A stretch of DNA of 32,000 nt from Cylindrospermopsis raciborskii Cr2010 (GTDB taxonomy: Bacteria; Cyanobacteriota; Cyanobacteriia; Cyanobacteriales; Nostocaceae), in contig NZ_CP065936.1 of the NCBI RefSeq assembly GCF_003367075.2, positions 2,940,001-2,972,000 on the forward strand, given 5' to 3'. This document shows positions 1,963 to 29,900 of the stretch, one piece after another. Positions within the stretch are counted from its first letter, which is position 1. Every line of letters starts with the position of its first letter. Below the pieces are notes generated by a model. The model saw nothing but the letters and a program-made list of their open reading frames with translations. It did no database searches and had not been told where the DNA came from. Made by a program: the position numbers and the translations under genes.

Positions 1963-2372
1963 ACTTGAGCTTTGCGATCTTCTGTATGGAGTGCTTAGCA
2001 ATCGCATTTATACATATACAGTTGGTTTGTTGGGTTTCGTGCCTCAACCCAACCTACGACTATTCACGACAAAACCACTCGGTTTCAACCGACTTGAGCT
2101 TTGCGATCTCCTGTATGGAGTGCTTAGCAATCGCATTTATACATATACAGTTGGTTTGTTGGGTTTCGTGCCTCAACCCAACCTACGACTATTCACGACA
2201 AAACCACTCGGTTTCAACCGACTTGAGCTTTGCGATCTCCTGTATGGAGTGCTTAGCAATCGCATTTATACATATACAGTTGGTTTGTTGGGTTTCGTGC
2301 CTCAACCCAACCTACGATTATTCACGACAAAACCAGTCGGTTGAAACCGACTTGAGCTTTGCGATCTCCTGT
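1963..2372 (+). repeat. 129-bp tandem repeat, 3 full units plus a 23-bp partial unit
   Basis: Unit starts at 1963, 2092, 2221 and 2350. The unit is built from H-element hairpins H1/H2 plus a DR-like segment (ctcctgtatggagtgcttagcaatcgc). Confidence 0.9.
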
Positions 2373-2716
2373 TATGAGTCCGAAATTATGGGTTGTAGGG
2401 CCTATCAGGACTATCGGGTGATTAATTTGTGGGAGATTGAGGGGGAGACGGTGTTTGAGCAAAATCTGTCTTCCTTGCTAGAGACTATACTAGCAAATAA
2501 GTTCCCAGATTTGACGAAGGAGATGATTATGCAGTTGCTGGATTTGAAACAAACGGATATTACCCAGTCTCGTTTTTATCAAGAGATTCGAACGGAGTGT
2601 CTTGAGGAAGGTCTCCAGGAAGGTCGTCAGGAACAGGCGATCGCCATGGTGATTCGCCAACTAACTCGGCGACTGGGGGAGTTGTCGGAGCGACGGGTGG
2701 GACAGATCCGGAAGAT
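2373..2716 (+). pseudogene. Chimeric Rpn-family remnant: B internal fragment (to 2480) fused to the C-terminal region of another Rpn/DUF4351 paralog
   Basis: 2373-2480 matches B (YESEIMGCRAYQDYRVINLWEIE..FEQNLSSLL). 2481-2712 encodes KFPDLTKEMIMQLLDLKQTDITQSRFYQEI..EGLQEGRQE..MVIRQLTRRLGEL, a DUF4351-type tail cut short. Confidence 0.7.
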
Positions 2717-2944: not shown

Positions 2945-2996
2945 ACTGAATAATCAAGTAGAATTACTGGAGAAATGGCATGAACTCTCAGATTAA
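2942..2996 (+). pseudogene. DUF4160 gene 3' remnant
   Basis: tatactgaataatcaagtagaattactggagaaatggcatgaactctcagattaa matches the end of the intact gene 13379-13606. Confidence 0.8.
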
Positions 2997-3264
2997 AACT
3001 CCCTGGCTAAAAGCGATAAAGGTAGTTCCTTTGGATGGTTTTCGTTTGCAGGTCATCTTTGAAAATGGGCAAGAGATGAGGCTTTCCCTGGAAAAATTAA
3101 TTCAAACCCGAGAGCGTTACTGGCGTCTAAAGAGTCCTCGTTATTTTCGTCAGGCTCAGATAGATACACTAGGGGGGATTTGCTGGCCTGAAGGGGAAGA
3201 TTTGGCACCGGATGGATTGGAACGGTATCTGATAATAGATACAACAAACTCACATATACCATAA
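2980..3264 (+). CDS. DUF2442 domain protein (copy 1, partner gene truncated)
   Basis: The 94-aa ORF is identical in translation to 13590-13874. The KAIKVVPLDGFRLQVIFENGQEMRLSLEKL pattern is typical of DUF2442. Confidence 0.75.
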   Translation: MNSQIKTPWLKAIKVVPLDGFRLQVIFENGQEMRLSLEKLIQTRERYWRLKSPRYFRQAQIDTLGGICWPEGEDLAPDGLERYLIIDTTNSHIP

Positions 3265-3285
3265 TTTAGCCAGTAACACTTCTAT

Positions 3286-3321
3286 CTCAATGACGATAAA
3301 TTTAGACCTCGGGGGTGGTAG
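3286..3321 (+). pseudogene. Relic of the DUF3782-family gene 3' end (ILNDDKFRPRGW*)
   Basis: Same sequence as the end of 15034-15867. Recurs at 7692-7727 and 13896-13931, always just downstream of DUF2442 copies. Confidence 0.7.
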
Positions 3322-3418
3322 TTAACAGCAGTGTGTGCAAAACAGACTGGCGATCGCCCATAGGGAGTGCTTCCCAATCGCCCTTTTAATTTGAAACAAA
3401 TTCACATACACCATAATT

Positions 3419-3543
3419 ACCCACGACAAAACCAGTCGGTTTTCAACCGACTTGAGCTTTGAGACCGGGAATTGATTCCCGGTCTCCCCCACGGACAGTC
3501 TCCAGGCGCAGGTTAATTCAAACAATCACGGGTAATTCCTTGG
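3419..3543 (+). repeat. H-element copy (H2+H3 hairpins and tail, lacks H1)
   Basis: acccacgacaaaaccagtcggttttcaaccgacttgagctttgagaccgggaattgattcccggtctcccccacggacagtctccagg...cacgggtaattccttgg. Confidence 0.75.
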
Positions 3544-3556
3544 CGAGATCCTGTGA

Positions 3557-3642
3557 GGAGTGCTTCCTAATCGCCCTTTTAATTTGAAACAAATGTTGGG
3601 TGGTGTAGAAACCAGCTCACCCTATGTGTAATAAGCCATCAG
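3557..3642 (+). repeat. DR (terminator-like) + Y hairpin module, variant a
   Basis: ggagtgcttcctaatcgcccttttaatttgaaacaaatgttgggtggtgtagaaaccagctcaccctatgtgtaataagccatcagc. The closest relative is at 17216-17300. Confidence 0.7.
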
Positions 3643-3666
3643 CCTTTTTGCCCAGTCCAGGTTATA

Positions 3667-3870
3667 ATGTGGGTGCGGAGTTACCTAACGGATTTGAGGG
3701 AAAGGCAAAACCTAAGTCCTAATGTAACCTTGTTACAGTTGTTAGGAACGAATGAAGAGGAGATAGGTAAGGAACTGTTGCAAAATGCAGAAGTTGAATC
3801 TTTACTGGATTTTAGACAGGTTTCTGATTTAGAAGCATGGTTAAAAGACGCAGAAAAATCCATTGTGTGA
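3667..3870 (+). other. Leader region with 67-aa relic ORF; last 29 codons derive from the 3' end of gene A
   Basis: Ends ESLLDFRQVSDLEAWLKDAEKSIV* followed by ttgtttATG, exactly as at the A/B junction 18306-18388. Its ATG overlaps the TATAAT box, so it is probably not translated from that codon. Confidence 0.5.
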
Positions 3871-3876
3871 TTGTTT

Positions 3877-4875
3877 ATGGTAAAAAAATCAGATATTGGC
3901 GGTAAACGTTTAATTGGACTTAGTCCACAAGCTTGGGGGCGTTGGGTCACGGGGGATAAAACGATCAAAGTTCAGGAAATTATTAACAGTGAACTTCAAT
4001 GGATCGAGCGGGAAAGTGATGTTTTGCTCAAGGCCCATAGTCCTGAGTGTGGCGATTTTATTCTACTGAATGAGCTACAACTGCGCCATGATGCTAAGAT
4101 GCCCCGAAGAATGCGAGCTTATGCTGCTCTAGTAGAGGAAAAGTATGGGCTACTAGTCTATCCAGTGGTCGTCAATATTCTTCAACCTGGGCCGACGGAG
4201 ATAATTCGCAACCGTTATGAGTCCGAAATTATGGGTTGTAGGGCCTATCAGGACTATCGGGTGATTAATTTGTGGGAGATTGAGGCGGAGACGGTGTTTG
4301 AGCAAAATCTGTCTTCCTTGCTACCGTTTGTCCCAATTTTGAAGGGGGGTAATAGTGAGGTAAATCTGCGTCAGGCTCTACTCAATCTTCGCAAGAATCA
4401 AGTGTTGGGGGATTTGGAGCCGTTGTTGTCTTTTTTTGCTAGCTTTGTATTTGATATCCCTTTAGTACAACAAATGATGAGGTGGGACATGACGGTATTA
4501 CGTGAATCGCCCTGGTACAACGAAATTCTTAAGGAAGGTCTTCAGGAAGGTCTTCAGAAAGGTCTTCAGGAAGGAAGACAAGAAGGTCTTCAGGAAGGAA
4601 GACAAGAAGGAAGACAAGAAGGAAGACAAGAAGGAAGACAAGAAGGACAGCGAAAGATAATATTACTGTTGCTGAATCACAAGTTTGATGGAATCGAGTC
4701 ACCTGTGGTGGAAAGGATAAACAGACTATCACTAGAGCAATTAGAAGCAATGGGTGAATCTTTACTGGATTTTAGACAGATTTCTGATTTAGAAGCGTGG
4801 TTAAAAGACGCAGAAAAATCCAATGATCTAAAACCACAAGTTGATATCCAAAATGGCAATCAACTGGATGTGTAA
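3877..4875 (+). CDS. Rpn-type PD-(D/E)XK nuclease / putative transposase with DUF4351 tail, copy B1 (9 VNTR units)
   Basis: ESDVLLKA...FILLNELQLRHDAKMPRRMRAYAAL..YGLLVYPVVVNI matches the D...ExQ..R..Y core of the YhgA/Rpn family. The C-terminal RINRLSLEQLEAMGESLLDF..DLEAWL is DUF4351-like. ATG 3877 is preferred over TTG 3871. Confidence 0.75.
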   Translation: MVKKSDIGGKRLIGLSPQAWGRWVTGDKTIKVQEIINSELQWIERESDVLLKAHSPECGDFILLNELQLRHDAKMPRRMRAYAALVEEKYGLLVYPVVVNILQPGPTEIIRNRYESEIMGCRAYQDYRVINLWEIEAETVFEQNLSSLLPFVPILKGGNSEVNLRQALLNLRKNQVLGDLEPLLSFFASFVFDIPLVQQMMRWDMTVLRESPWYNEILKEGLQEGLQKGLQEGRQEGLQEGRQEGRQEGRQEGRQEGQRKIILLLLNHKFDGIESPVVERINRLSLEQLEAMGESLLDFRQISDLEAWLKDAEKSNDLKPQVDIQNGNQLDV

Positions 4876-4897
4876 TCGGTTACAGTGTCTACAACGA

Positions 4898-4916
4898 GCG
4901 ATTGCGAAGCAATCGC
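4898..4916 (+). terminator. Perfect 8-bp stem hairpin gcgattgc-gaa-gcaatcgc after the B stop (HIP1-like half sites)
   Basis: Seen directly. Also at 6140-6158 and 19395-19413. Loop-flipped version (ttc) at 7430-7448 and 9740-9758. This variant has no clear U-tract. Confidence 0.35.
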
Positions 4917-4928
4917 CCGTGGCAAGGT

Positions 4929-4958
4929 TTGTTGATTTTGCCCAGTCCAGGTTATAAT
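4929..4958 (+). promoter_or_regulatory. Sigma70-like promoter of unit 2: TTGTTG - 18 nt - TATAAT
   Basis: Consensus -10 at 4953-4958. Alternative -35 TTGATT at 4932-4937 with 15-nt spacing. Identical site at 6171-6200. Confidence 0.5.
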
Positions 4959-5160
4959 GTGGGTGCGGAGTTACCTAACGGATTTGAGGGAAAGGCAAAA
5001 CCTAAGTCCTAATGTAACCTTGTTACAGTTGTTAGGAACGAATGAAGAGGAGATAGGTAAGGAACTGTTGCAAAATGCAGAAGCTGAATCTTTACTGGAT
5101 TTTAGAAAGATTTCTGATTTAGAAGCATGGTTAAAAGACGCAGAAAAATCCATTGTGTGA
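4957..5160 (+). other. Leader/relic ORF of unit 2
   Basis: Same as 3667-3870 but with three amino-acid differences (A, K, I), matching the gene A tail more closely (FRKISDLEAW). Confidence 0.5.
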
Positions 5161-5166
5161 TTATTT

Positions 5167-6117
5167 ATGGTAAAAAAATCAGATATTGGCGGTAAACGTT
5201 TAATTGGACTTAGTCCACAAGCTTGGGGGCGTTGGGTCACGGGGGATAAAACGATCAAAGTTCAGGAAATTATTAACAGTGAACTTCAATGGATCGAGCG
5301 GGAAAGTGATGTTTTGCTCAAGGCCCATAGTCCTGAGTGTGGCGATTTTATTCTACTGAATGAGCTACAACTGCGCCATGATGCTAAGATGCCCCGAAGA
5401 ATGCGAGCTTATGCTGCTCTAGTAGAGGAAAAGTATGGGCTACTAGTCTATCCAGTGGTCGTCAATATTCTTCAACCTGGGCCGACGGAGATAATTCGCA
5501 ACCGTTATGAGTCCGAAATTATGGGTTGTAGGGCCTATCAGGACTATCGGGTGATTAATTTGTGGGAGATTGAGGCGGAGACGGTGTTTGAGCAAAATCT
5601 GTCTTCCTTGCTACCGTTTGTCCCAATTTTGAAGGGGGGTAATAGTGAGGTAAATCTGCGTCAGGCTCTACTCAATCTTCGCAAGAATCAAGTGTTGGGG
5701 GATTTGGAGCCGTTGTTGTCTTTTTTTGCTAGCTTTGTATTTGATATCCCTTTAGTACAACAAATGATGAGGTGGGACATGACGGTATTACGTGAATCGC
5801 CCTGGTACAACGAAATTCTTAAGGAAGGTCTTCAGAAAGGTCTTCAGGAAGGCGAACTTCGAGGAGAACAACGTGGAAGACAAGAAGGACAGCGAAAGAT
5901 AATATTACTGTTGCTGAATCACAAGTTTGATGGAATCGAGTCACCTGTGGTGGAAAGGATAAACAGACTATCACTAGAGCAATTAGAAGCAATGGGTGAA
6001 TCTTTACTGGATTTTAGACAGATTTCTGATTTAGAAGCGTGGTTAAAAGACGCAGAAAAATCCAATGATCTAAAACCACAAGTTGATATCCAAAATGGCA
6101 ATCAACTGGATGTGTAA
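5167..6117 (+). CDS. Rpn-type nuclease with DUF4351 tail, copy B2 (5 VNTR units)
   Basis: Translation is identical to B1 outside the linker repeat. Confidence 0.75.
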   Translation: MVKKSDIGGKRLIGLSPQAWGRWVTGDKTIKVQEIINSELQWIERESDVLLKAHSPECGDFILLNELQLRHDAKMPRRMRAYAALVEEKYGLLVYPVVVNILQPGPTEIIRNRYESEIMGCRAYQDYRVINLWEIEAETVFEQNLSSLLPFVPILKGGNSEVNLRQALLNLRKNQVLGDLEPLLSFFASFVFDIPLVQQMMRWDMTVLRESPWYNEILKEGLQKGLQEGELRGEQRGRQEGQRKIILLLLNHKFDGIESPVVERINRLSLEQLEAMGESLLDFRQISDLEAWLKDAEKSNDLKPQVDIQNGNQLDV

Positions 6118-6170
6118 TCGGTTACAGTGTCTACAACGAGCGATTGCGAAGCAATCGCCCGTGGCAAGGT

Positions 6171-6200
6171 TTGTTGATTTTGCCCAGTCCAGGTTATAAT
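6171..6200 (+). promoter_or_regulatory. Sigma70-like promoter of unit 3: TTGTTG - 18 nt - TATAAT
   Basis: Identical to 4929-4958. Confidence 0.5.
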
Positions 6201-6402
6201 GTGGGTGCGGAGTTACCTAACGGATTTGAGGGAAAGGCAAAACCTAAGTCCTAATGTAACCTTGTTACAGTTGTTAGGAACGAATGAAGAGGAGATAGGT
6301 AAGGAACTGTTGCAAAATGCAGAAGTTGAATCTTTACTGGATTTTAGACAGGTTTCTGATTTAGAAGCATGGTTAAAAGACGCAGAAAAATCCATTGTGT
6401 GA
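6199..6402 (+). other. Leader/relic ORF of unit 3
   Basis: Identical in translation to 3667-3870. Confidence 0.5.
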
Positions 6403-6408
6403 TTGTTT

Positions 6409-7407
6409 ATGGTAAAAAAATCAGATATTGGCGGTAAACGTTTAATTGGACTTAGTCCACAAGCTTGGGGGCGTTGGGTCACGGGGGATAAAACGATCAA
6501 AGTTCAGGAAATTATTAACAGTGAACTTCAATGGATCGAGCGGGAAAGTGATGTTTTGCTCAAGGCCCATAGTCCTGAGTGTGGCGATTTTATTCTACTG
6601 AATGAGCTACAACTGCGCCATGATGCTAAGATGCCCCGAAGAATGCGAGCTTATGCTGCTCTAGTAGAGGAAAAGTATGGGCTACTAGTCTATCCAGTGG
6701 TCGTCAATATTCTTCAACCTGGGCCGACGGAGATAATTCGCAACCGTTATGAGTCCGAAATTATGGGTTGTAGGGCCTATCAGGACTATCGGGTGATTAA
6801 TTTGTGGGAGATTGAGGCGGAGACGGTGTTTGAGCAAAATCTGTCTTCCTTGCTACCGTTTGTCCCAATTTTGAAGGGGGGTAATAGTGAGGTAAATCTG
6901 CGTCAGGCTCTACTCAATCTTCGCAAGAATCAAGTGTTGGGGGATTTGGAGCCGTTGTTGTCTTTTTTTGCTAGCTTTGTATTTGATATCCCTTTAGTAC
7001 AACAAATGATGAGGTGGGACATGACGGTATTACGTGAATCGCCCTGGTACAACGAAATTCTTAAGGAAGGTCTTCAGGAAGGTCTTCAGGAAGGTCTTCA
7101 GAAAGGTCGTCAGGAAGGTCTTCAGGAAGGCGAACTTCGAGGAGAACAACGTGGAAGACAAGAAGGAAGACAAGAAGGACAGCGAAAGATAATATTACTG
7201 TTGCTGAATCACAAGTTTGATGGAATCGAGTCACCTGTGGTGGAAAGGATAAACAGACTATCACTAGAGCAATTAGAAGCAATGGGTGAATCTTTACTGG
7301 ATTTTAGACAGATTTCTGATTTAGAAGCGTGGTTAAAAGACGCAGAAAAATCCAATGATCTAAAACCACAAGTTGATATCCAAAATGGCAATCAACTGGA
7401 TGTGTAA
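6409..7407 (+). CDS. Rpn-type nuclease with DUF4351 tail, copy B3 (9 VNTR units, different unit order from B1)
   Basis: Translation is identical to B1/B2 outside the linker. Confidence 0.75.
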   Translation: MVKKSDIGGKRLIGLSPQAWGRWVTGDKTIKVQEIINSELQWIERESDVLLKAHSPECGDFILLNELQLRHDAKMPRRMRAYAALVEEKYGLLVYPVVVNILQPGPTEIIRNRYESEIMGCRAYQDYRVINLWEIEAETVFEQNLSSLLPFVPILKGGNSEVNLRQALLNLRKNQVLGDLEPLLSFFASFVFDIPLVQQMMRWDMTVLRESPWYNEILKEGLQEGLQEGLQKGRQEGLQEGELRGEQRGRQEGRQEGQRKIILLLLNHKFDGIESPVVERINRLSLEQLEAMGESLLDFRQISDLEAWLKDAEKSNDLKPQVDIQNGNQLDV

Positions 7408-7450
7408 TCGGTTACAGTGTCTACAACGAGCGATTGCTTCGCAATCGCCC

Positions 7451-7670
7451 TTTGCAGGTCATCTTTGAAAATGGGCAATAGATGAGGCTTTCCCTGGAAA
7501 AATTAATTCAAACCCGAGAGCGTTACTGGCGTCTAAAGAGTCCTCGTTATTTTCGTCAGGCTCAGATAGATACACTAGGGGGGATTTGCTGGCCTGAAGG
7601 GGAAGATTTGGCACCGGATGGATTGGAACGGTATCTGATAATAGATACAACAAACTCACATATACCATAA
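7451..7670 (+). pseudogene. DUF2442 gene, 5'-truncated with in-frame nonsense (GAG to TAG at 7479-7481)
   Basis: Homology to 13590-13874 starts at tttgcaggtcatc. caatagatg here versus caagagatg in intact copies. Confidence 0.8.
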
Positions 7671-7768
7671 TTTAGCCAGTAACACTTCTATCTCAATGAC
7701 GATAAATTTAGACCTCGGGGGTGGTAGTTAACAGCAGTGTGTGCAAAACAGACTGGCGATCGCCCATA

Positions 7769-7884
7769 GGGAGTGCTTCCCAATCGCCCTTTTAATTTGA
7801 AATAAATTCATATAAACAACGCTGTTGAGGGGGTCAAAACCGGTTGACCCGATGTGTAATCGAAATCTGTAATGTTAAACCATC
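7769..7884 (+). repeat. DR + Y hairpin module, variant c
   Basis: gggagtgcttcccaatcgcccttttaatttgaaataaattcatataaacaacgctgttgagggggtcaaaaccggttgacccgatgtgtaatcgaaatctgtaatgttaaaccatc. Copies at 15899-16014 and 16379-16494. Confidence 0.8.
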
Positions 7885-8083
7885 TTACCAATCTTTTAAT
7901 ACTCCTATATCAATCATTCGTCCTTTTAATACCTATGGACCTCGACAATCAGCACAGCTTGTGGGATGGGAACCTTTATATGGTGGGCGTGAGGGATTTA
8001 AGCAGGGTTTGGCAGAAACGGCAGAATGGTTTATGAACCCGACAAATTTGGCAGGGTATAAGAGCGATCGCTACAACATTTGA
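7885..8083 (+). pseudogene. legB: LegB-like NAD-dependent 4,6-dehydratase remnant (5'-truncated, internal deletion)
   Basis: PISIIRPFNTYGPRQSA joined directly to LVGWEPLYGGREGFKQGLAETAEWFMNPTNLAGYKSDRYNI*. These are SDR dehydratase motifs separated by a missing block of roughly 100 aa. Confidence 0.6.
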
Positions 8084-8372
8084 GGGTCACTGGGGAAGTG
8101 GAAAAACTGGAACAGAATTTTTTATGCGGGCTAAAAGCTGTATTGGGAGAGCCGAATCCTTTTGTGCCACTCCATGAGCCTGAGTTTATGGGTAATGAGT
8201 GGGAATTGGTCAAAAATTGCCTTGATTCCACCTTTGTTTCGTCTGTTGGTAAATACGTTGATCGCTTTGAGGTCATGCTGGCGGAATATACAGGAGCAAA
8301 ATATGCTGTAGCGGTAGTAAATGGCACTGCTGCTCTGCATATCGCTTTGTTATTGGCAGGGGTTAGACCGGT
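8080..8372 (+). pseudogene. legC: LegC-family (DegT/DnrJ/EryC1) aminotransferase, N-terminal ~95 codons only
   Basis: FVPLHEPEFMGNEWELVKNCLDSTFVSSVGKYVDRFEVMLAEYTGAKYAVAVVNGTAALHIALLLAGVRP, then a junction into the H-element. Confidence 0.65.
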
Positions 8373-8400
8373 GCTTTGAAGTTGCATTTATATATATCCC

Positions 8401-8565
8401 GTTGGTTTGTTGGGTTTCGTGCCTCAACCCAACCTACGATTACCCACGACAAAACCAGTCGGGTTTAACCGACTTGCGCTTTGAGACCGAGAATTGATTC
8501 CCGGTCTCCCCCACGGACAGTCTCCAGGTAAGGGTTAATTTAAACAATGACGAGTAATTCCTTGG
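8401..8565 (+). repeat. H-element, full copy (H1, H2, H3 hairpins + tail)
   Basis: H1 ttgggtttcgtgcctcaacccaa. H2 cagtcgggtttaaccgacttg. H3 gagaccgagaattgattcccggtctc. Then ccccacggacagtctccagg...gagtaattccttgg. Confidence 0.8.
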
Positions 8566-8865: not shown

Positions 8866-9717
8866 TGGATCGAGCGGGAAAGTGATGTTTTGCTCAAGGC
8901 CCATAGTCCTGAGTGTGGCGATTTTATTCTACTGAATGAGCTACAACTGCGCCATGATGCTAAGATGCCCCGAAGAATGCGAGCTTATGCTGCTCTAGTA
9001 GAGGAAAAGTATGGGCTACTAGTCTATCCAGTGGTCGTCAATATTCTTCAACCTGGGCCGACGGAGATAATTCCCAGCCATTATGAGTCGGAAATTATGG
9101 GCTGTAGGGCCTATCAGGACTATCGGGTGATTAATTTGTGGGAGATTGAGGCGGAGACGGTGTTTGAGCAAAATCTGTCTTCCTTGCTACCGTTTGTCCC
9201 AATTTTGAAGGGGGGTAATAGTGAGGTAAATCTCCGTCAGGCTCTACTCAGTCTTCACAAGAATGAAGTGTTGGGGGATTTGGAGCCGTTGTTGTCTTTT
9301 CTTGCTAGCTTTGTATTTGATATCCCTTTAGTGCAACAAATGATGAGGTGGGACATGACGGTATTACGTGAATCGCCCTGGTACAACGAAATTCTTAAGG
9401 AAGGTCTTCAGGAAGGTCTTCAGAAAGGTCTTCAGGAAGGCGAACTTCGAGGAGAACAACGTGGAAGACAAGAAGGAAGACAAGAAGGACAGCAAAAGAT
9501 AATATTACTGTTGCTGAATCACAAGTTTGATGGAATTGAGTTACCTGTGGTGGAAAGGATAAACAGACTATCATTAGAGCAATTAGAAGCACTGGGTGAA
9601 TCTTTACTGGATTTTAAACAGATTTCTGATTTAGAAGCATGGTTAAAAGACGCAGAAAAATCCAATGATCTAAAACCACAAGTTGATATCCAAAATGGCA
9701 ATCAACTGGATGTGTAA
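8866..9717 (+). pseudogene. Rpn-type nuclease copy B4, 5'-truncated (lacks ~43 N-terminal codons), 7 VNTR units
   Basis: Homology to B begins at ggatcgagcgggaaagtg. Upstream is an unrelated 40-mer. Several substitutions (IIPSHYESE, LSLHKNE, GIELPV). Confidence 0.75.
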
Positions 9718-9739: not shown

Positions 9740-9770
9740 GCGATTGCTTCGCAATCGCCCTTTTGATTTA
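9740..9770 (+). terminator. Hairpin gcgattgc-ttc-gcaatcgc followed by cccttttgattt (intrinsic-terminator-like; this is the DR motif)
   Basis: 8-bp GC-rich stem with a T-rich tract 3 nt downstream. The same 3' half recurs about 10 times in the window. Confidence 0.4.
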
Positions 9771-11656: not shown

Positions 11657-11738
11657 ATCTTTACTGGACTTTAGACAGATTTCTGATTTAGAAGCATGGT
11701 TAAAAGACGCAGAAAAATCCAATGATCTGAGGAGATAG
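11556..11738 (+). other. Free-standing DUF4351-domain mini-ORF (60 aa) starting at the HIP1 junction
   Basis: MVIRQLTRRLGELSEQRVGQIRQLSVPQLEALAESLLDFRQISDLEAWLKDAEKS. It is a relic of a third Rpn paralog (cf. 2645-2712). Expression is unknown. Confidence 0.45.
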
Positions 11739-11848
11739 GTAAGGAACTGTTGCAAAATGCAGAAGCTGAATCTTTACTGGATTTTAGACAGATTTCTGAT
11801 TTAGAAGCATGGTTAAAAGACGCAGAAAAATCCATTGTGTGATTATTT

Positions 11849-12871
11849 ATGGTAAAAAAATCAGATATTGGCGGTAAACGTTTAATTGGACTTAGTCCAC
11901 AAGCTTGGGGGCGTTGGGTCACGGGGGATAAAACGATCAAAGTTCAGGAAATTATTAACAGTGAACTTCAATGGATCGAGCGGGAAAGTGATGTTTTGCT
12001 CAAGGCCCATAGTCCTGAGTGTGGCGATTTTATTCTACTGAATGAGCTACAACTGCGACATGATGCTAAGATGCCCCGACGAATGCGAGCTTATGCTGCT
12101 CTAGTAGAGGAAAAGTATGGGCTACTAGTCTATCCAGTGGTCGTCAATATTCTTCAACCTGGGCCGACGGAGATAATTCGCAGCCGTTATGAGTCCGAAA
12201 TTATGGGTTGTAGGGCCTATCAGGACTATCGGGTGATTAATTTGTGGGAGATTGAGGCGGAGACGGTGTTTGAGCAAAATCTGTCTTCCTTGCTACCGTT
12301 TGTCCCAATTTTGAAGGGGGGTAATAGTGAGGTAAATCTGCGTCAGGCTCTACTCAATCTTCGCAAGAATCAAGTGTTGGGGGATTTGGAGCCGTTGTTG
12401 TCTTTTTTTGCTAGCTTTGTATTTGATATCCCTTTAGTACAACAAATGATGAGGTGGGACATGACGGTATTACGTGAATCGCCCTGGTACAACGAAATTC
12501 TTAAGGAAGGTCTTCAGAAAGGTCGTCAGGAAGGTCTTCAGGAAGGTCTTCAGGAAGGCGAACTTCGAGGAGAACAACGTGGAAGACAAGAAGGTCTTCA
12601 GGAAGGAAGACAAGAAGGAAGACAAGAAGGAAGACAAGAAGGACAGCGAAAGATAATATTACTGTTGCTGAATCACAAGTTTGATGGAATCGAGTCACCT
12701 GTGGTGGAAAGGATAAACAGACTATCACTAGAGCAATTAGAAGCAATGGGTGAATCTTTACTGGATTTTAGACAGATTTCTGATTTAGAAGCGTGGTTAA
12801 AAGACGCAGAAAAATCCAATGATCTAAAACCACAAGTTGATATCCAAAATGGCAATCAACTGGATGTGTAA
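11849..12871 (+). CDS. Rpn-type nuclease with DUF4351 tail, copy B5 (11 VNTR units)
   Basis: 340 aa. N to S at IIRSRYESE plus synonymous differences. Preceded by a shortened leader relic at 11738-11848. Confidence 0.75.
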   Translation: MVKKSDIGGKRLIGLSPQAWGRWVTGDKTIKVQEIINSELQWIERESDVLLKAHSPECGDFILLNELQLRHDAKMPRRMRAYAALVEEKYGLLVYPVVVNILQPGPTEIIRSRYESEIMGCRAYQDYRVINLWEIEAETVFEQNLSSLLPFVPILKGGNSEVNLRQALLNLRKNQVLGDLEPLLSFFASFVFDIPLVQQMMRWDMTVLRESPWYNEILKEGLQKGRQEGLQEGLQEGELRGEQRGRQEGLQEGRQEGRQEGRQEGQRKIILLLLNHKFDGIESPVVERINRLSLEQLEAMGESLLDFRQISDLEAWLKDAEKSNDLKPQVDIQNGNQLDV

Positions 12872-13052
12872 TCGGTTACAGTGTCTACAACGAGCGATCG
12901 CAAAGCAGATCTCCTGTAAGGAGTGCTTCGCAATCGCCCTTTTAAACCGTTCATGAAGTGGGATTCGTTTTAAACTCAACCTACCAAGTGTTATACTTAA
13001 TTAGATACTAATACGGCGAGCGAGGCGACCTGCCATTTTTGAGGTATACACG

Positions 13053-14084: not shown

Positions 14085-14290
14085 GTCGGGTAAGGGTTGG
14101 ACATCACTATCCTTCCCTCCCCTAAGAACCGGACTTGACGGTTTCCCATCATCCGGCTCAAGCCTTACTTCAAGCCTTTCAACTTGGGTTTTGAGTGTAC
14201 CTGTTTATGACACGCTGAGTGCAAATGCTTCAGGTTTTCTATGTCGTCCAGACCACCTTTTGCAACAGGTACTATGTGGTGGGTTTCGAT
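14085..14290 (-). mobile_element. Group II intron 3' remnant: HNH end of the RT/maturase ORF, domain V, domain VI
   Basis: The minus strand encodes IETHHIVPVAKGGLDDIENLKHLHSACHKQVHSKPKLKGLK* (14290-14168, stop 14167-14165). The 34-nt domain V GAGCCGGAUGAUGGGAAACCGUCAAGUCCGGUUC (14159-14126) has the AGC triad, GAAA tetraloop and 2-nt bulge. Domain VI has a bulged A 7 nt from the 3' end ...cccttAcccgac (end at 14085). Confidence 0.85.
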
Positions 14291-14432
14291 TCCATCTCCA
14301 TTTACGATTACCTACGACAAAACCGGTCGGGTTTAACCGACTTGGGCTTTGAGACCGAGAATTGATTCCCGGTCTCCCCCACGGACAGTCTCCAGGTTTG
14401 GATTAACTCAACCAAGTCACGGGTAATTCCTT
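14281..14432 (+). repeat. H-element copy joined to the truncated side of the intron remnant
   Basis: The junction shares tgggtttcg between the intron HNH coding sequence and the H1 hairpin. Then acgacaaaaccggtcgggtttaaccgacttgggctttgagaccgagaattgattcccggtctccc... Confidence 0.75.
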
Positions 14433-14917: not shown

Positions 14918-15012
14918 GAGTGCTTCGCAATCGCCCTTTTGATTTAAAATAAATTCATATAAACAACTCCTGTGGTTGAGCGGAGTCGAAATCAGCTAAG
15001 CTGATGTGTAAG
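14918..15012 (+). repeat. DR + Y module, variant d, forming the 5' flank of the DUF3782 gene
   Basis: gagtgcttcgcaatcgcccttttgatttaaaataaattcatataaacaactcctgtgg...cagctaagctgatgtgtaagag. Confidence 0.65.
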
Positions 15013-15033
15013 AGTATATTGGAGCGGGAGAAT

Positions 15034-15867
15034 ATGGCGACTACTGCTGATGAGGTATGGAAACTGCTGGGAGAACTTATTGAGTCTCAGAAAGAGACGG
15101 AACGGAAATTCCAAGAAACAGAACGTCTCTTGCGTGAGCGGTCCCAAGAAACAGAACGTTTCCTGCGTGAGCAGTCCCAAGAAACGGATCGGAGGTTCCA
15201 AGAAACAGAACGTCTCTTGCGTGAGCAGTCCCAAGAAACGGATTGGAAGTTCCAAGAAACAGAACGTCTCTTGCGCGAGCAGTCCCAAGAAACGGATCGG
15301 AAGTTCCAAGAAACAGAACGTCTCTTGCGTGAGCAGTCCCAAGAAACGGATCGGAAGTTCCAAGAAACAGAACGTCTCTTGCGCGAGCAGTCCCAAGAAA
15401 CGGAACGTTTATTACGTGAAGAATCCAAAAGGGTTAATAACCAAATTGGTCAATTAGGCAATCGACTGGGAGAGTTCGTCGAATCACAGGTGCGTCCAGC
15501 AGCGGTGAAATTATTTCAAGAAAGAGGTATAGCGGTCAAAGAAATAGCCAGCAACACTTATATCCAAACGGGAAAAGAAGGATTAGAAATTGACCTATTA
15601 GTTATTAATAGTTCTGATATTATTTTAATTGAAGCGAAAAGTAAAGTATCAGAAGATGATGTCAATGAACATTTAGAAAGACTATCAAAATTCAAGCGTT
15701 TCTTCCCCAGGTATGAAAGTTACCGGGTATTGGGAGCAGTAGCGGGAATGGTAATTCCACTGGATGTTTCTCGTTATGCTTATCGGAAGGGATTATTTGT
15801 AATTGGGCAGTCGGGAGATAATTTAGTCATTCTCAATGACGATAAATTTAGACCTCGAGGGTGGTAA
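15034..15867 (+). CDS. DUF3782-like protein: repetitive coiled-coil N-terminus + PD-(D/E)XK-like C-terminal domain
   Basis: ATG 15034 follows GGAGCGGGAG. QETERLLREQSQETDRKF repeats. The C-terminal EIDLLVIN..IILIEAKSK fits a D...ExK nuclease motif. Confidence 0.7.
   Translation: MATTADEVWKLLGELIESQKETERKFQETERLLRERSQETERFLREQSQETDRRFQETERLLREQSQETDWKFQETERLLREQSQETDRKFQETERLLREQSQETDRKFQETERLLREQSQETERLLREESKRVNNQIGQLGNRLGEFVESQVRPAAVKLFQERGIAVKEIASNTYIQTGKEGLEIDLLVINSSDIILIEAKSKVSEDDVNEHLERLSKFKRFFPRYESYRVLGAVAGMVIPLDVSRYAYRKGLFVIGQSGDNLVILNDDKFRPRGW
15112..15420 (+). repeat. 54-nt (18-codon) in-frame tandem repeat, ~5.5 units
   Basis: caagaaacagaacgtctcttgcgtgagcagtcccaagaaacggatcggaagttc with unit starts near 15145, 15199, 15253, 15307 and 15361. 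All other frames are open here, which explains the overlapping ORF-track entries. Confidence 0.9.
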
Positions 15868-15898: not shown

Positions 15899-16014
15899 GG
15901 GAGTGCTTCGCAATCGCCCTTTTGATTTAAAATAAATTCATATAAACAACGCTGTTGAGGGGGTCAAAACCGGTTGACCCGATGTGTAATCGAAATCTGT
16001 AATGTTAAACCATC
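15899..16014 (+). repeat. DR + Y hairpin module, variant c
   Basis: Near-identical to 7769-7884 and 16379-16494. The hairpin is gggtcaaaaccggttgaccc. Confidence 0.8.
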
Positions 16015-16286
16015 AGGTTTGTAAAGAAATGTAAATTAATCCCTATAGCTTCTTGACTTATGCAACAAATCTGATATCATTCTGGCATGGGGTAATTAAT
16101 TGCCTCGTATCCAAATAAAATACAAGCTAAATCATAAGGTGCAGAGCTTTGACGGTCTACATGATCTCAGTTCGTGCTAACCAGACTCACCCACAGCTAA
16201 GAGAGTCGAGTGGTATGGCTTTTCTGTATCAATTTTAACCTATAACCAATAATCACCCACGGCAAAACCGGTCGGTTTTAACCGAT
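16015..16286 (+). repeat. X-module copy X2 (promoter + ~200-nt conserved downstream sequence)
   Basis: Near-identical to 20360-20632, with scattered substitutions. Confidence 0.8.
16053..16080 (+). promoter_or_regulatory. Sigma70-like promoter inside X2: TTGACT - 16 nt - TATCAT
   Basis: Hexamers at 16053-16058 and 16075-16080. Confidence 0.5.
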
Positions 16287-16345
16287 GATCTAAGACCAAA
16301 AATGGCAATCAACTGGATGTGTAATCGGTCACAATGTCTACAACG
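16287..16345 (+). pseudogene. Relic of the B-gene 3' end (with internal deletion)
   Basis: gatctaagaccaaaaatggcaatcaactggatgtgtaatcggtcacaatgtctacaacg. Confidence 0.75.
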
Positions 16346-16378
16346 GGCGATCTCGCGAGTGCTTTGCGATCGCCCATA

Positions 16379-16494
16379 GGGAGTGCTTCCCAATCGCCCT
16401 TTTAATTTGAAATAAATTCATATAAACAACGCTGTTGAGGGGGTCAAAACCGGTTGACCCGATGTGTAATCGAAATCTGTAATGTTAAACCATC
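16379..16494 (+). repeat. DR + Y hairpin module, variant c
   Basis: Part of the 777-bp duplication 16366-17142 = 7756-8532. Confidence 0.8.
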
Positions 16495-16693
16495 TTACCA
16501 ATCTTTTAATACTCCTATATCAATCATTCGTCCTTTTAATACCTATGGACCTCGACAATCAGCACAGCTTGTGGGATGGGAACCTTTATATGGTGGGCGT
16601 GAGGGATTTAAGCAGGGTTTGGCAGAAACGGCAGAATGGTTTATGAACCCGACAAATTTGGCAGGGTATAAGAGCGATCGCTACAACATTTGA
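16495..16693 (+). pseudogene. legB: LegB-like dehydratase remnant, second copy
   Basis: Translation is identical to 7885-8083. Confidence 0.6.
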
Positions 16694-16982
16694 GGGTCAC
16701 TGGGGAAGTGGAAAAACTGGAACAGAATTTTTTATGCGGGCTAAAAGCTGTATTGGGAGAGCCGAATCCTTTTGTGCCACTCCATGAGCCTGAGTTTATG
16801 GGTAATGAGTGGGAATTGGTCAAAAATTGCCTTGATTCCACCTTTGTTTCGTCTGTTGGTAAATACGTTGATCGCTTTGAGGTCATGCTGGCGGAATATA
16901 CAGGAGCAAAATATGCTGTAGCGGTAGTAAATGGCACTGCTGCTCTGCATATCGCTTTGTTATTGGCAGGGGTTAGACCGGT
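16690..16982 (+). pseudogene. legC: LegC-family aminotransferase N-terminal fragment, second copy
   Basis: Translation is identical to 8080-8372. Confidence 0.65.
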
Positions 16983-17010
16983 GCTTTGAAGTTGCATTTA
17001 TATATATCCC

Positions 17011-17143
17011 GTTGGTTTGTTGGGTTTCGTGCCTCAACCCAACCTACGATTACCCACGACAAAACCAGTCGGGTTTAACCGACTTGCGCTTTGAGACCGA
17101 GAATTGATTCCCGGTCTCCCCCACGGACAGTCTCCAGGTAAGA
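17011..17143 (+). repeat. H-element copy (H1-H3)
   Basis: Identical to 8401-8532, then diverges. Confidence 0.8.
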
Positions 17144-17215
17144 GTTGATTCAACCCAATAATAGTTAATTCCCCAGCGAACGCCCATAGGAAGTGCTTCG
17201 CGATCTCGCAAGTGC

Positions 17216-17434: not shown

Positions 17435-18379
17435 ATGACCCGATTCATTCACGACCAATTTGCCAAGGACTACTTAGAGGAAATACTCAGGCCCTATGGA
17501 GAAATAGAATCTTTTAAGCGAGTTCCAGGAGAAGTTAGACAAATAGACTGTTTCTTTTCTCCAGCAGGTGAAAAAATCACCAAACTATCGGGTTTAGGTG
17601 TACTAGGCAGTTTTGCCAGATTGCCAGGGATATTTGAACCATTTAGGAATGCAGCATCAGAGGAAGAAATATGTGATTGCATATTGAAGCTACTGGAAAT
17701 AAGAGGGTTAATGCAAAGGGAAGCAAAGCGAGATAAAAGAAAACTAGACAAAGAAAAAGTTCCCTATCTGTGGATTCTGACACCAACAGCCTCAAAGAAA
17801 ATACTAAAAGGGTTTAATGCTGTTGCAGAAAGCAATTCCTGTCAAGGAGTGTACCATTTAGGAAAAAGTCTGAGGACAAAGATTGTAGCGATTCACCACT
17901 TACCAAACACGCCGGAAACATTATGGCTAAGAATATTGGGAAGGGGGAAAGTACGAACAAAAGCAATTGATCAGTTAGAAAAACTGACAGAAGATCACCC
18001 ATTACGAAGAAAGGTGCTAGAATTGCTATATACTTTGAGACAAAACTTGGAGCAAAGTGGAAAAGCTGAAGAAAGGGAAGATAAGGAGTTAATTATGAGG
18101 TTAGCACCACTGTACCAGCAAGATATAGAAAAAGTGAGACAAGAAGGTCTTCAGGAAGGCGAACTTCGAGGAGAACAACGTGGAAGACAAGAAGGACAGC
18201 GAAAGATAATATTACTGTTGCTGAATCACAAGTTTGATGGAATTGAGTTACCTGTGGTGGAAAGGATAAACAGACTATCATTAGAGCAATTAGAAGCAAT
18301 GGGTGAATCTTTACTGGATTTTAGAAAGATTTCTGATTTAGAAGCATGGTTAAAAGACGCAGAAAAATCCATTGTGTGA
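17435..18379 (+). CDS. Gene A: cyanobacterial nuclease-like protein (distinct N-terminal domain) with the same linker + DUF4351 tail as B
   Basis: MTRFIHDQFAKDYLEE..EVRQIDCFF..IFEPFRN..LWILTPTAS..IVAIHHLPNTPETLWLRILGRG resembles a recurrent cyanobacterial family. The last ~75 aa are nearly identical at nt level to the B tail. The stop lies 6 nt before the B6 ATG. Confidence 0.65.
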   Translation: MTRFIHDQFAKDYLEEILRPYGEIESFKRVPGEVRQIDCFFSPAGEKITKLSGLGVLGSFARLPGIFEPFRNAASEEEICDCILKLLEIRGLMQREAKRDKRKLDKEKVPYLWILTPTASKKILKGFNAVAESNSCQGVYHLGKSLRTKIVAIHHLPNTPETLWLRILGRGKVRTKAIDQLEKLTEDHPLRRKVLELLYTLRQNLEQSGKAEEREDKELIMRLAPLYQQDIEKVRQEGLQEGELRGEQRGRQEGQRKIILLLLNHKFDGIELPVVERINRLSLEQLEAMGESLLDFRKISDLEAWLKDAEKSIV

Positions 18380-18385
18380 TTGTTT

Positions 18386-19372
18386 ATGGTAAAAAAATCA
18401 GATATTGGCGGTAAACGTTTAATTGGACTTAGTCCACAAGCTTGGGGGCGTTGGGTCACGGGGGATAAAACGATCAAAGTTCAGGAAATTATTAACAGTG
18501 AACTTCAATGGATCGAGCGGGAAAGTGATGTTTTGCTCAAGGCCCATAGTCCTGAGTGTGGCGATTTTATTCTACTGAATGAGCTACAACTGCGCCATGA
18601 TGCTAAGATGCCTCGACGAATGCGAGCTTATGCTGCTCTAGTAGAGGAAAAGTATGGGCTACTAGTCTATCCAGTGGTCGTCAATATTCTTCAACCTGGG
18701 CCGACGGAGATAATTCGCAGCCGTTATGAGTCCGAAATTATGGGTTGTAGGGCCTATCAGGACTATCGGGTGATTAATTTGTGGGAGATTGAGGCGGAGA
18801 CGGTGTTTGAGCAAAATCTGTCTTCCTTGCTACCGTTTGTCCCAATTTTGAAGGGGGGTAATAGTGAGGTAAATCTGCGTCAGGCTCTACTCAATCTTCG
18901 CAAGAATCAAGTGTTGGGGGATTTGGAGCCGTTGTTGTCTTTTTTTGCTAGCTTTGTATTTGATATCCCTTTAGTACAACAAATGATGAGGTGGGACATG
19001 ACGGTATTACGTGAATCGCCCTGGTACAACGAAATTCTTAAGGAAGGTCTTCAGAAAGGTCTTCAGAAAGGTCTTCAGAAAGGTCGTCAGGAAGGTCTTC
19101 AGGAAGGCGAACTTCGAGGAGAACAACGTGGAAGACAAGAAGGACAGCGAAAGATAATATTACTGTTGCTGAATCACAAGTTTGATGGAATCGAGTCACC
19201 TGTGGTGGAAAGGATAAACAGACTATCACTAGAGCAATTAGAAGCAATGGGTGAATCTTTACTGGATTTTAGACAGATTTCTGATTTAGAAGCATGGTTA
19301 AAAGACGCAGAAAAATCCAATGATCTAAAACCACAAGTTGATATCCAAAATGGCAATCAACTGGATGTGTAA
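18386..19372 (+). CDS. Rpn-type nuclease with DUF4351 tail, copy B6 (8 VNTR units)
   Basis: 328 aa from ATG 18386. Has IIRSRYESE like B5. Confidence 0.75.
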   Translation: MVKKSDIGGKRLIGLSPQAWGRWVTGDKTIKVQEIINSELQWIERESDVLLKAHSPECGDFILLNELQLRHDAKMPRRMRAYAALVEEKYGLLVYPVVVNILQPGPTEIIRSRYESEIMGCRAYQDYRVINLWEIEAETVFEQNLSSLLPFVPILKGGNSEVNLRQALLNLRKNQVLGDLEPLLSFFASFVFDIPLVQQMMRWDMTVLRESPWYNEILKEGLQKGLQKGLQKGRQEGLQEGELRGEQRGRQEGQRKIILLLLNHKFDGIESPVVERINRLSLEQLEAMGESLLDFRQISDLEAWLKDAEKSNDLKPQVDIQNGNQLDV

Positions 19373-19469
19373 TCGGTTACAGTGTCTACAACGAGCGATT
19401 GCGAAGCAATCGCCCTTTGCAGGTCATCTTTGAAAATGGGCAAGAGATGAGGCTTTCCCTGGAAAAATT

Positions 19470-20225: not shown

Positions 20226-20359
20226 ATTAATTCAAACCCGAGAGCGTTACTGGCGTCTAAAGAGTACTCGTTATTTTCGTCAGGCTCAGATAGATACACT
20301 AGGGGGGATTTGCTGGACTGAACCCGATGTGTAATCGAAATCTGTAATGTTAAACCATC

Positions 20360-20632
20360 AGGTTTGTAAAGAAATGTAAATTAATCCCTATAACCTCTTG
20401 ACTTATGCAACAAATCTGATATTATTCTGGCATGGGGTAATTAATTGCCTCGTATCCAAATAAAATACAAGCTAAATCATAAGGTGCAGAGCTTTGACGG
20501 TCTACATGATCTCAGTTCGTACCAACCAGACTCACCCGCAGCTACGAGAGTCGAGTGGCACGGGTTTTCTGTCTCAATTTTAACCTATAACCAATAATCA
20601 CCCACGGCAAAACCGGTCGGTTTTCAACCGAT
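20360..20632 (+). repeat. X-module copy X3, immediately upstream of the pse cluster
   Basis: Aligns with X2. Followed by the B-tail relic and then pseB. Confidence 0.8.
20398..20425 (+). promoter_or_regulatory. Sigma70-like promoter inside X3: TTGACT - 16 nt - TATTAT, oriented toward pseB
   Basis: Hexamers at 20398-20403 and 20420-20425. About 300 nt upstream of the pseB ATG, with no intervening terminator-like hairpin seen. Confidence 0.5.
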
Positions 20633-20704
20633 GATCTAAGACCACAAGTTGATATCCAAAATGGCAATCAACTGGATGTGTAATCGGTCACAATGTCTAC
20701 AACG
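20633..20704 (+). pseudogene. Relic of the B-gene 3' end (last ~24 codons + stop + 25 nt)
   Basis: gatctaagaccacaagttgatatccaaaatggcaatcaactggatgtgtaatcggtcacaatgtctacaacg. Confidence 0.8.
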
Positions 20705-20721
20705 GCGTAACTTTAAACTTA

Positions 20722-29664: not shown

Positions 29665-29731
29665 AGAACCCCAAGAATTAAATCAGCTGGTACGACAAAT
29701 TCGAGATTTACCCAAACTATTTTGCGCTGTT

Positions 29732-29900
29732 CTGAGTGTGGCGATTTTATTCTACTGAATGAGCTACAACTGCGCCATGATGCTAAGATGCCCCGACGAA
29801 TGCGAGCTTATGCTGCTCTAGTAGAGGAAAAGTATGGGCTACTAGTCTATCCAGTGGTCGTCAATATTCTTCAACCTGGGCCGACGGAGATAATTCGCAA
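29732..29900 (+). pseudogene. B-gene internal fragment (catalytic-core codons ECGDFILLNELQ...PTEIIR) fused in frame to the aminotransferase
   Basis: Matches B1 4056-4210. Ends at ataattcgca. Confidence 0.85.

Follow-up and report, generated by a model that had tools for sequence, protein, structure and literature searches.

The closest described counterparts of the locus analysed here are the rpn genes of Escherichia coli, in which an internal ribosome-binding site and ATG yield a small C-terminal protein, RpnS, that blocks the toxic full-length protein, RpnL (PMC10400941). In these proteins four-residue repeats begin 8–20 residues after the RpnS methionine, and only an RpnS with a matching repeat number neutralises its RpnL (PMC10400941). 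Free-standing RpnS genes are annotated as DUF4351 (PMC10400941). Tandem rpn arrays without terminal inverted repeats (TIRs) or target-site duplications (TSDs), strain-variable copy number and hypervariation of the four-residue repeat are already published (PMC10400941), as is a Bacillus thuringiensis genome with as many as 26 rpn copies (Zhong et al. 2023, PMC10400941). Here we analysed 32,000 nt of Cylindrospermopsis raciborskii Cr2010 (contig NZ_CP065936.1, positions 2,940,001 to 2,972,000; hereafter the window, to which all coordinates refer). The three tandem units found in the window form a real array, and every unit has a cyanobacterial gene of the Rpn family (COG5464). An earlier, sequence-only reading had considered a near-identical multi-copy locus of this kind unusual. 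Given the published tandem arrays and multi-copy rpn genomes (PMC10400941), and similar loci among other cyanobacteria (6/79, see below), this view no longer stands; the array phenomenon is not new and has precedent in the rpn genes of other bacteria. Taken as a whole, the locus is probably best explained as a real array that would have arisen through a palindrome and unequal crossing-over, and whose genes would be distinct toxin–antitoxin modules.

Repeats were mapped by self-BLASTN, which recovered three co-oriented, head-to-tail units where the sequence-only reading had placed them, the third ending at about position 7450, with unit periods of 1290 and 1242 nt (Table 1). Sequence identity was 98.1% between 3646–4928 and 6178–7459, 99.3% between 3646–4562 and 4936–5852, and 99.6% between 4633–5852 and 5875–7094. 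Each unit carries a full open reading frame (ORF) and, as had been claimed for the proteins, the three genes are identical outside a 12-nt variable-number tandem repeat (VNTR), with 0/657 and 0/234 differences on its two sides (0/891 nt). The VNTR has 9, 5 and 9 repeats in units 1, 2 and 3, respectively, and all three compositions differ; that of unit 1 reads EGLQ EGLQ KGLQ EGRQ EGLQ, followed by four EGRQ repeats.

Sequence comparison supported the repeated protein as a divergent member of Rpn (COG5464), where it was filed on its C-terminal, repeat and internal-start features, the nuclease-core comparison being supportive but not decisive. A DUF4351 domain (PF14261) was detected in Pfam at residues 251–309 (E = 2.5e-20). 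D48, E66, Q68, R70 and Met205 were invariant among 26 aligned homologues taken from a range of cyanobacteria. When these 26 homologues were compared with 15 E. coli RpnA-like proteins (PF04754) using hhalign, 222 colinear columns were aligned at E = 4.1e-5, placing D48 onto RpnA D63 and E66-x-Q68 onto E82-H-Q84, at a probability of only 70%. The comparison was supportive only with the profile; against the single RpnA sequence it was uninformative (probability 0.15). In the AlphaFold2 (AF2) model, which has a predicted local distance difference test score (pLDDT) of 68, elements around D48/E66/Q68 follow an alpha-beta-beta-beta-alpha-beta order, as expected of a PD-(D/E)XK core. The repeats lie on a long 59-residue helix (residues 212–270), after which come three short helices. 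PDB sequences, searched with single sequences as well as with profiles, returned chance matches only. Over 4,000 relatives were scored in the homologue search at E ≤ 0.001, the closest being 93–97% identical and belonging to Cylindrospermopsis (Raphidiopsis) raciborskii and C. curvispora. Their source names include ‘Rpn family recombination-promoting nuclease/putative transposase’, ‘DUF4351 domain-containing protein’ and ‘predicted transposase YdaD’. JGI and NCBI names point to COG5464/Rpn, and NCBI names close relatives ‘Rpn family’ despite a TIGR01784 score below the cut-off.

The likeness to E. coli RpnA-E/RpnP2 (PMC10400941; PMC5350276) extends from the putative D..ExQ core, which aligns colinearly, and the DUF4351-type helical C-terminus to the repeats, which are again 4 aa (12 nt) long, combine one hydrophobic residue with charged residues or glycine, and vary in number within a species. 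Shared features also include an internal Shine–Dalgarno (SD) sequence and ATG shortly before the repeats, and the lack of TIRs and TSDs. In contrast to E. coli Rpn, the N-terminal domain here fails PF04754 and the TIGR01784 cut-off. The predicted short protein has 112–136 aa, against 49 aa for RpnA-S (PDB 7th0), and its internal SD, GAGGTGGG, is encoded by R-W-D, whereas the AAGGAG of E. coli is encoded by K-E.

The predicted internal start is matched by a clear mark in codon usage, which was counted in 90 homologues (79 loci) drawn from other cyanobacteria and from Chloroflexi. In unit 1, GAGGTGGG at 4479–4486 precedes the ATG at 4489 (Met205). The first repeat begins 15 aa downstream of this residue, a distance inside the published range of 8–20 (PMC10400941). 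Shortly before Met205, the codon for Arg202 is AGG in 90/90 homologues, compared with 7.7% at the remaining Arg codons of these genes. Codon choice is mixed at five further conserved Arg positions (AGG 0–5%), and synonymous sites adjoining the motif vary freely. Fixation of AGG would keep the SD in front of the internal ATG, as expected for the start of an RpnS antitoxin, and is what an ancient internal start under selection would be predicted to show. Each unit therefore probably encodes a long protein (316–332 aa) and a predicted short one (112–128 aa). The gene at 17435–18379 carries AAGGAG-6 nt-ATG (18083–18097) encoded by K-E-x-x-M, which is the arrangement of the experimentally validated internal start of E. 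coli rpnA. A TTGATA-16-AATGAT sequence at 4451–4478 was rejected as a promoter of the short ORF, as a start there would delete the SD.

Homology to E. coli Rpn suggests a toxin–antitoxin and antiphage function. The long form, RpnL, would be a PD-(D/E)XK-type DNA endonuclease toxin, and the short C-terminal form, RpnS, starting from Met205, would bind and block it, both carrying the helix of 4-aa repeats. The diversity of these repeats was assessed across five genomes. Those compared at the array locus included L001 (CP195152), L002 (CP073250) and L084 (C. curvispora CP060822), all complete. The repeats follow the consensus (E/K/R)G(L/R/E)(Q/L), and individual copies carry 4–11 of them. Among 30 copies, 23 VNTR alleles were found, with no duplicates within any genome; alleles were shared only between genomes, mostly at corresponding positions of L001 and L002. 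Over the first 657 nt, 14 sites were variable among 22 copies (0–10/657 nt differing), and copies within a tandem run differed at 0–2 sites in 657 nt, save the last unit of the second run in L002. Distinct VNTR alleles, together with the repeat-number specificity seen in E. coli, make separate modules the most economical reading. We infer that the array consists of separately controlled toxin–antitoxin, probably antiphage, modules and not of extra doses. A related principle is known from the TAEL repeats of the EcoR124I/EcoR124II HsdS subunits, and from further contingency VNTRs of defence genes, where an in-frame change in the number of 4-aa repeats within a helix likewise alters specificity while the gene stays on (PMC10400941). 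The HsdS repeat sets the spacing in DNA-target recognition, whereas the repeat here would set protein–protein pairing.

A more far-reaching version of the modular reading, which we consider possible but hold only tentatively, is that the array is a self-diversifying repertoire. Orthogonal RpnL/RpnS pairs would be coded by VNTR allele, and continual 12-nt slippage and crossing-over, perhaps promoted by Rpn itself, would act together with selection for difference. If so, selection would account for the all-different alleles within a genome. The sequence-only reading had raised dosage selection, in which amplification would provide more of one nuclease. This could draw on the identity of the coding sequence outside the VNTR in the three units, as in recent amplification, but is opposed by the alleles themselves, none of which is shared by two copies within any of the five genomes. 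Moreover, repeat number sets the fit between antitoxin and toxin in E. coli, so the copies are unlikely to be equivalent, and no preferred dose is evident in the wide range of copy number between strains. Dosage selection is thus improbable and not the best reading; a different VNTR allele in every copy points to diversification.

Alternatively, the array could be a neutral by-product of a recombination-prone, repeat-rich region, its genes being without current function. We regard this as very improbable. Every arrayed ORF was intact in all genomes examined, conservation of the family is high among cyanobacteria and its catalytic-type residues are invariant, and the synonymous-site constraint described above (AGG 90/90) maintains the internal start. 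These observations stand against a setting that does suit neutrality: duplicated segments, chimeric ORFs and gene fragments form a mosaic over the entire 20 kb, and truncated copies and relics are common.

The junction between units lies at a 19-nt perfect palindrome, GCGATTGC-GAA-GCAATCGC, located 3' of the gene at 4898–4916 (+) and 6140–6158. In unit 3 it lies at 7430–7448 with its loop flipped to TTC, so the perfect hairpin attributed to every unit was present throughout, inverted at its loop in unit 3. The palindrome occurs on both sides of a unit, one copy coming after the rpn stop codon. Elsewhere in the window the loop reads GAA at 19395–19413 and the reverse-complement TTC at 9740–9758; the stem is kept in all five cases. 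Fold z-scores of the hairpin were modest (−1.6 and −2.3). The palindrome was rejected as a canonical terminator, as a T-run is absent after it and the terminator scan gave no entry. The order at the junction is hairpin GCGATTGC-GAA-GCAATCGCCC, then GTGGCAAGGTTTGTTGA, then TTTTGCCCAGTCC. Within the window, the 17-mer GTGGCAAGGTTTGTTGA was found at the two internal junctions only. The same junction was also found in L001, L002, L084 and L083 (a fourth other genome), and upstream of solitary units. Four other loci together yielded 20 occurrences of an identical 40-nt junction, some of them in front of solitary units without a preceding rpn gene, and the junction was identical across all units of all genomes compared.

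The surroundings of the array were also conserved. Copies of the flanking direct repeat A border it in L001, L002 and L084 too, and spacer B is 100% identical in L001 and L002. The architecture A-B-units-A' was constant, and the number of units was three in the window, six in L001 and about two in L084. L002 contained 5 + 3 units in the order A-B-U5-A-B-U3-A, and L083 had two adjacent units plus solitary ones in a different arrangement. Copy number therefore differs between strains, and the suggestion of a copy-number-variable locus was confirmed by 3, 6, 5 + 3 and ~2 units between the same flanks. Among other cyanobacteria, 6/79 loci had two to three adjacent copies that were 93–99% identical in the first 600 nt and differed in repeat number. 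This included Sphaerospermopsis (L009), Moorena (L027/L061/L072), Aphanocapsa and Gomphosphaeria, with L019 and L065 also among the loci. Spacers between adjacent copies in L009, L027/L061/L072, L019 and L065 were ~80–150 nt long and without the 67-aa leader ORF described below. A literature search returned no account of this locus in Cylindrospermopsis/Raphidiopsis.

From these junctions we infer that the first duplication took place at the palindrome. A single unit would have been bracketed by two direct copies of the 19–21-nt palindrome, and recombination or slippage between them would give exactly the observed junction. Unequal homologous crossing-over between the 1.25-kb units would then expand and contract the array, leading to 3, 6, 5 + 3 and ~2 units in different genomes, and the 364-nt flanking repeat would permit higher-order duplication, as in L002. 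Short DUF4351-encoding 3' segments would be exchanged among rpn copies, leader relics and the gene at 17435–18379. Segments of ~70–230 nt corresponding to the end of DUF4351 are indeed common to all three and carry mosaic substitutions, a pattern that fits ongoing gene conversion and agrees with the sequence exchange at the locus proposed earlier.

Amplification by unequal recombination rather than transposition had been proposed from the lack of TIRs and TSDs around the units. Neither was found bounding the units, and the proposal gained from the differing ends of homology and from a junction sequence that recurs in all units and at four further genome loci. An insertion sequence (IS)-like element that repeatedly transposed into the locus, with Rpn as its transposase, is suggested by the names of relatives (‘putative transposase’, ‘ISNCY family transposase’, ‘predicted transposase YdaD’) and by several copies and fragments that lie scattered within 30 kb. 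It is nonetheless highly unlikely: homology to the solitary copies starts variably at unit nt 112, 150 and 355, which together with the lack of bounding inverted repeats argues against transposition, all array junctions are identical, also upstream of solitary units, and Zhong et al. saw no evidence of rpn transposition (PMC10400941). Although near-identical 1.25-kb repeats are difficult to assemble, and look-ups of the window's Rpn and ABC-transporter proteins gave no exact match in the public collection, a single unit mis-assembled as three can be dismissed as equally implausible, since the units are told apart by three different VNTR alleles and four private leader substitutions in unit 2, and ~2 to 6 units occupy the same locus and flanks in three independent complete genomes.

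The rpn arrays already published likewise have co-oriented tandem copies, no target duplications and a copy number that is strain-variable within species (Zhong et al. 2023). For this locus, a palindrome junction, a flanking 364-nt repeat, a higher-order duplication and all-distinct VNTR alleles could be defined as well. In the literature available to us we did not find described the palindrome-defined junction, the flanking repeat with higher-order duplication, the all-different alleles or the codon evidence for an internal start.

Each gene is preceded by a leader of 231 nt, identical in units 1 and 3 and with four substitutions in unit 2. That the leader carries a relic of another gene's 3' end was borne out, as 3795–3870 matches the 3' end of the gene at 17435–18379 with 22/24 aa identical. 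The relic forms part of an intact 67-aa ORF, whose last 24 aa correspond to the end of the DUF4351 domain (92% identical to the end of the same gene) and whose N-terminus is weakly DUF2887-like (E = 0.038). All three substitutions of unit 2 that fall inside this ORF (3/3) are non-synonymous. The ORF is probably what remains of a DUF2887/DUF4351-type gene, though it may still be expressed. Unlike free-standing RpnS, it is without the repeat helix of the RpnS dimer interface, and is thus more likely a relic than an antitoxin. A promoter-like TTGTTG-18-TATAAT site had been ascribed to every unit; this was correct for the two internal junctions only (4929–4958 and 6171–6200), and incorrect for unit 1, which has TCAGCC instead of TTGTTG. 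The TATAAT overlaps the ATG of the 67-aa ORF. The site was not listed in a consensus promoter scan, whose promoter and terminator counts did not exceed those of shuffled sequence. Rfam and tRNA scans gave no match inside the array.

Several points weigh against separate toxin–antitoxin modules of Rpn type. In the N-terminal ~200 residues no Pfam nuclease family, PF04754 included, was found, either with the protein alone at E ≤ 10 or with the 26 homologues at E ≤ 1, and the domain matches no Pfam model. TIGR01784 scored 31.1 bits against a cut-off of 52.1, over residues 240–290 only, and the probability of the hhalign alignment was limited, as given above. The best Foldseek matches in the PDB are PD-(D/E)XK nucleases (EndoMS, Hjc), but they are weak and non-significant (E ≥ 0.048) and come from a model with a pLDDT of 68. 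PADLOC returned no matching model. Conservation of AGG could reflect another nucleotide-level constraint. Units 1 and 3 both have nine repeats, so number alone would give no strict orthogonality between them, and their independence would require a role for composition too. The copy number given for the source strain is that of the assembly.

Beyond the array, self-BLASTN recovered the two further full copies (11849 and 18386) and the truncated copy (8866) reported earlier. The truncated copy retains the internal SD/ATG (9345–9357) and an intact RpnS-like ORF of 120 aa (9355–9717), and could be a free-standing antitoxin gene. In holding an intact short ORF and SD it resembles the free-standing RpnS genes ypaA/rpnE-Ss and rpnC-Ss, located downstream of E. 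coli rpn, but it is a decayed long gene and not a dedicated small one. Solitary copy 5 is linked to the preceding gene via a common 3'-end segment. In that gene (17435–18379) the C-terminal domain is near-identical to those of the rpn copies, and 6 nt separate the stop codon of the gene from the next rpn ATG.

Two rpn fragments, 27 kb apart, correspond to adjacent parts of the gene with breakpoints within 2–3 nt of each other, the 3' piece lying to the left of the 5' piece. The pair may mark a recombination hot spot or an old crossover within rpn that bracketed the region, or may be coincidence. The right-hand fragment supplies the 5' end of a chimeric ORF (29722–31080) in the native rpn frame, with the aminotransferase Pfam match beginning only at residue 60. 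At the left, a 129-nt tandem repeat at 1936–2726 (3.4 copies, 97% matches) runs into the chimeric ORF 1965–2726, which goes on with rpn residues 113–149 and then a DUF4351-like tail of another gene. This ORF is probably a recombination scar; a counterpart exists in L001 and L002.

The surroundings are dense in repeats and contain Uma2-type endonuclease genes, small DUF2442/DUF4160 and DUF29 genes, a nuclease-like ORF with 18-aa repeats, an IS1 transposase, an ATP-binding cassette (ABC) transporter and a group II intron fragment. The N-terminal half of the nuclease-like ORF (15004–15867) contains 4.8 tandem copies of a repeat of 54 nt (18 aa; 96% matches), and the C-terminal half weakly resembles DUF3782/NERD and Csx1-type PD-(D/E)XK nucleases. 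The intron fragment is a domain V/VI match at 14085–14161 (−) in Rfam (61 bits, E = 6.7e-10); an intron ORF was not evident in its vicinity. A repeat of ~128 nt is dispersed over 3413–3540, 8435–8562, 14303–14430 and 17045–17172, one copy adjoining the intron match. Large segmental duplications of 93–100% identity link 7756–8561 with 16366–17172, 15977–16346 with 20322–20705 and 1–184 with 2761–2944; a DegT-type aminotransferase gene is represented in them by a 5' fragment, and the stretch preceding the sugar cluster is included as well. A Uma2-like ORF that crosses the left end of the window carries five copies of a 21-nt repeat (334–438; AEQEKLR x5) at its C-terminus. A sugar-modification gene cluster lies at 20.7–31.8 kb, and the adjacent sugar cluster of C. 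curvispora differs from it. Judged from these sequence matches, the locus has been repeatedly rebuilt from neighbouring sequences.

Table 1 Features of the rpn-like array and of related sequences in the 32,000-nt window.
Feature	Position	Strand	Description
rpn fragment	2371–2480	+	110 nt, equal to unit nt 4214–4323; within chimeric ORF 1965–2726
Left flanking direct repeat A	3045–3408	+	364 nt; 3' part of DUF2442 gene 2980–3264 plus downstream sequence; 99.2% identical to 7451–7814
Spacer B	3409–3645	+	237 nt, from A to first unit; holds dispersed ~128-nt repeat 3413–3540
Unit 1	3646–4935	+	1290 nt
67-aa leader ORF	3667–3870, 4957–5160, 6199–6402	+	Intact; called as a gene in other strains
Unit 1 rpn-like long ORF	3877–4875	+	332 aa; D48, E66-x-Q68 core and DUF4351 C-terminus
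Internal Shine–Dalgarno GAGGTGGG + ATG	4479–4491, 5769–5781, 7011–7023, 9345–9357, 12451–12463, 18988–19000	+	Putative, from codon conservation
Unit 1 predicted internal RpnS-like ORF	4489–4875	+	128 aa; repeats start 15 aa past Met
Unit 1 VNTR	4534–4641	+	9 x 12 nt (EGLQ / KGLQ / EGRQ)
Junction 17-mer GTGGCAAGGTTTGTTGA	4919–4935, 6161–6177	+	Includes TTGTTG hexamer
Unit 2	4936–6177	+	1242 nt; gene 5167–6117 (316 aa)
Unit 2 predicted RpnS-like ORF	5779–6117	+	112 aa
Unit 2 VNTR	5824–5883	+	5 repeats
Unit 3	6178–7450	+	Gene 6409–7407 (332 aa)
Unit 3 predicted RpnS-like ORF	7021–7407	+	128 aa
Unit 3 VNTR	7066–7173	+	9 repeats; allele unlike that of unit 1
Right flanking direct repeat A'	7451–7814	+	DUF2442 gene minus its first 65 nt
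5'-truncated copy	8866–9717	+	Starts at codon 42 (minus first 41 codons); 7 repeats
Solitary copy 4	11729–12911	+	Gene 11849–12871, 340 aa, 11 repeats
Second Rpn-like gene	17435–18379	+	DUF2887-type N-terminus (precomputed Pfam, other strains); C-terminal domain as in rpn copies; 4 repeats
Solitary copy 5	18304–19424	+	Gene 18386–19372, 328 aa, 8 repeats
rpn fragment	29729–29900	+	172 nt, equal to unit nt 4040–4211; in-frame fusion to class-III aminotransferase ORF

Read as distinct modules, these genes extend the genes-within-genes toxin–antitoxin idea of Rpn to a large, divergent cyanobacterial subfamily. The locus is a natural series of 2 to 8 near-identical genes whose differences are almost confined to the repeat tract, and this suits it to tests of repeat number or composition as the determinant of pairing, and of the rate at which the tract changes. 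In bloom-forming cyanobacteria it is also a candidate for an antiphage locus that varies between strains, with a variable polysaccharide cluster as its neighbour. Should the array prove to be a self-diversifying repertoire, it would be the counterpart, in a bacterium, of a variable immune-gene cluster and would adjoin a variable surface-glycan locus.

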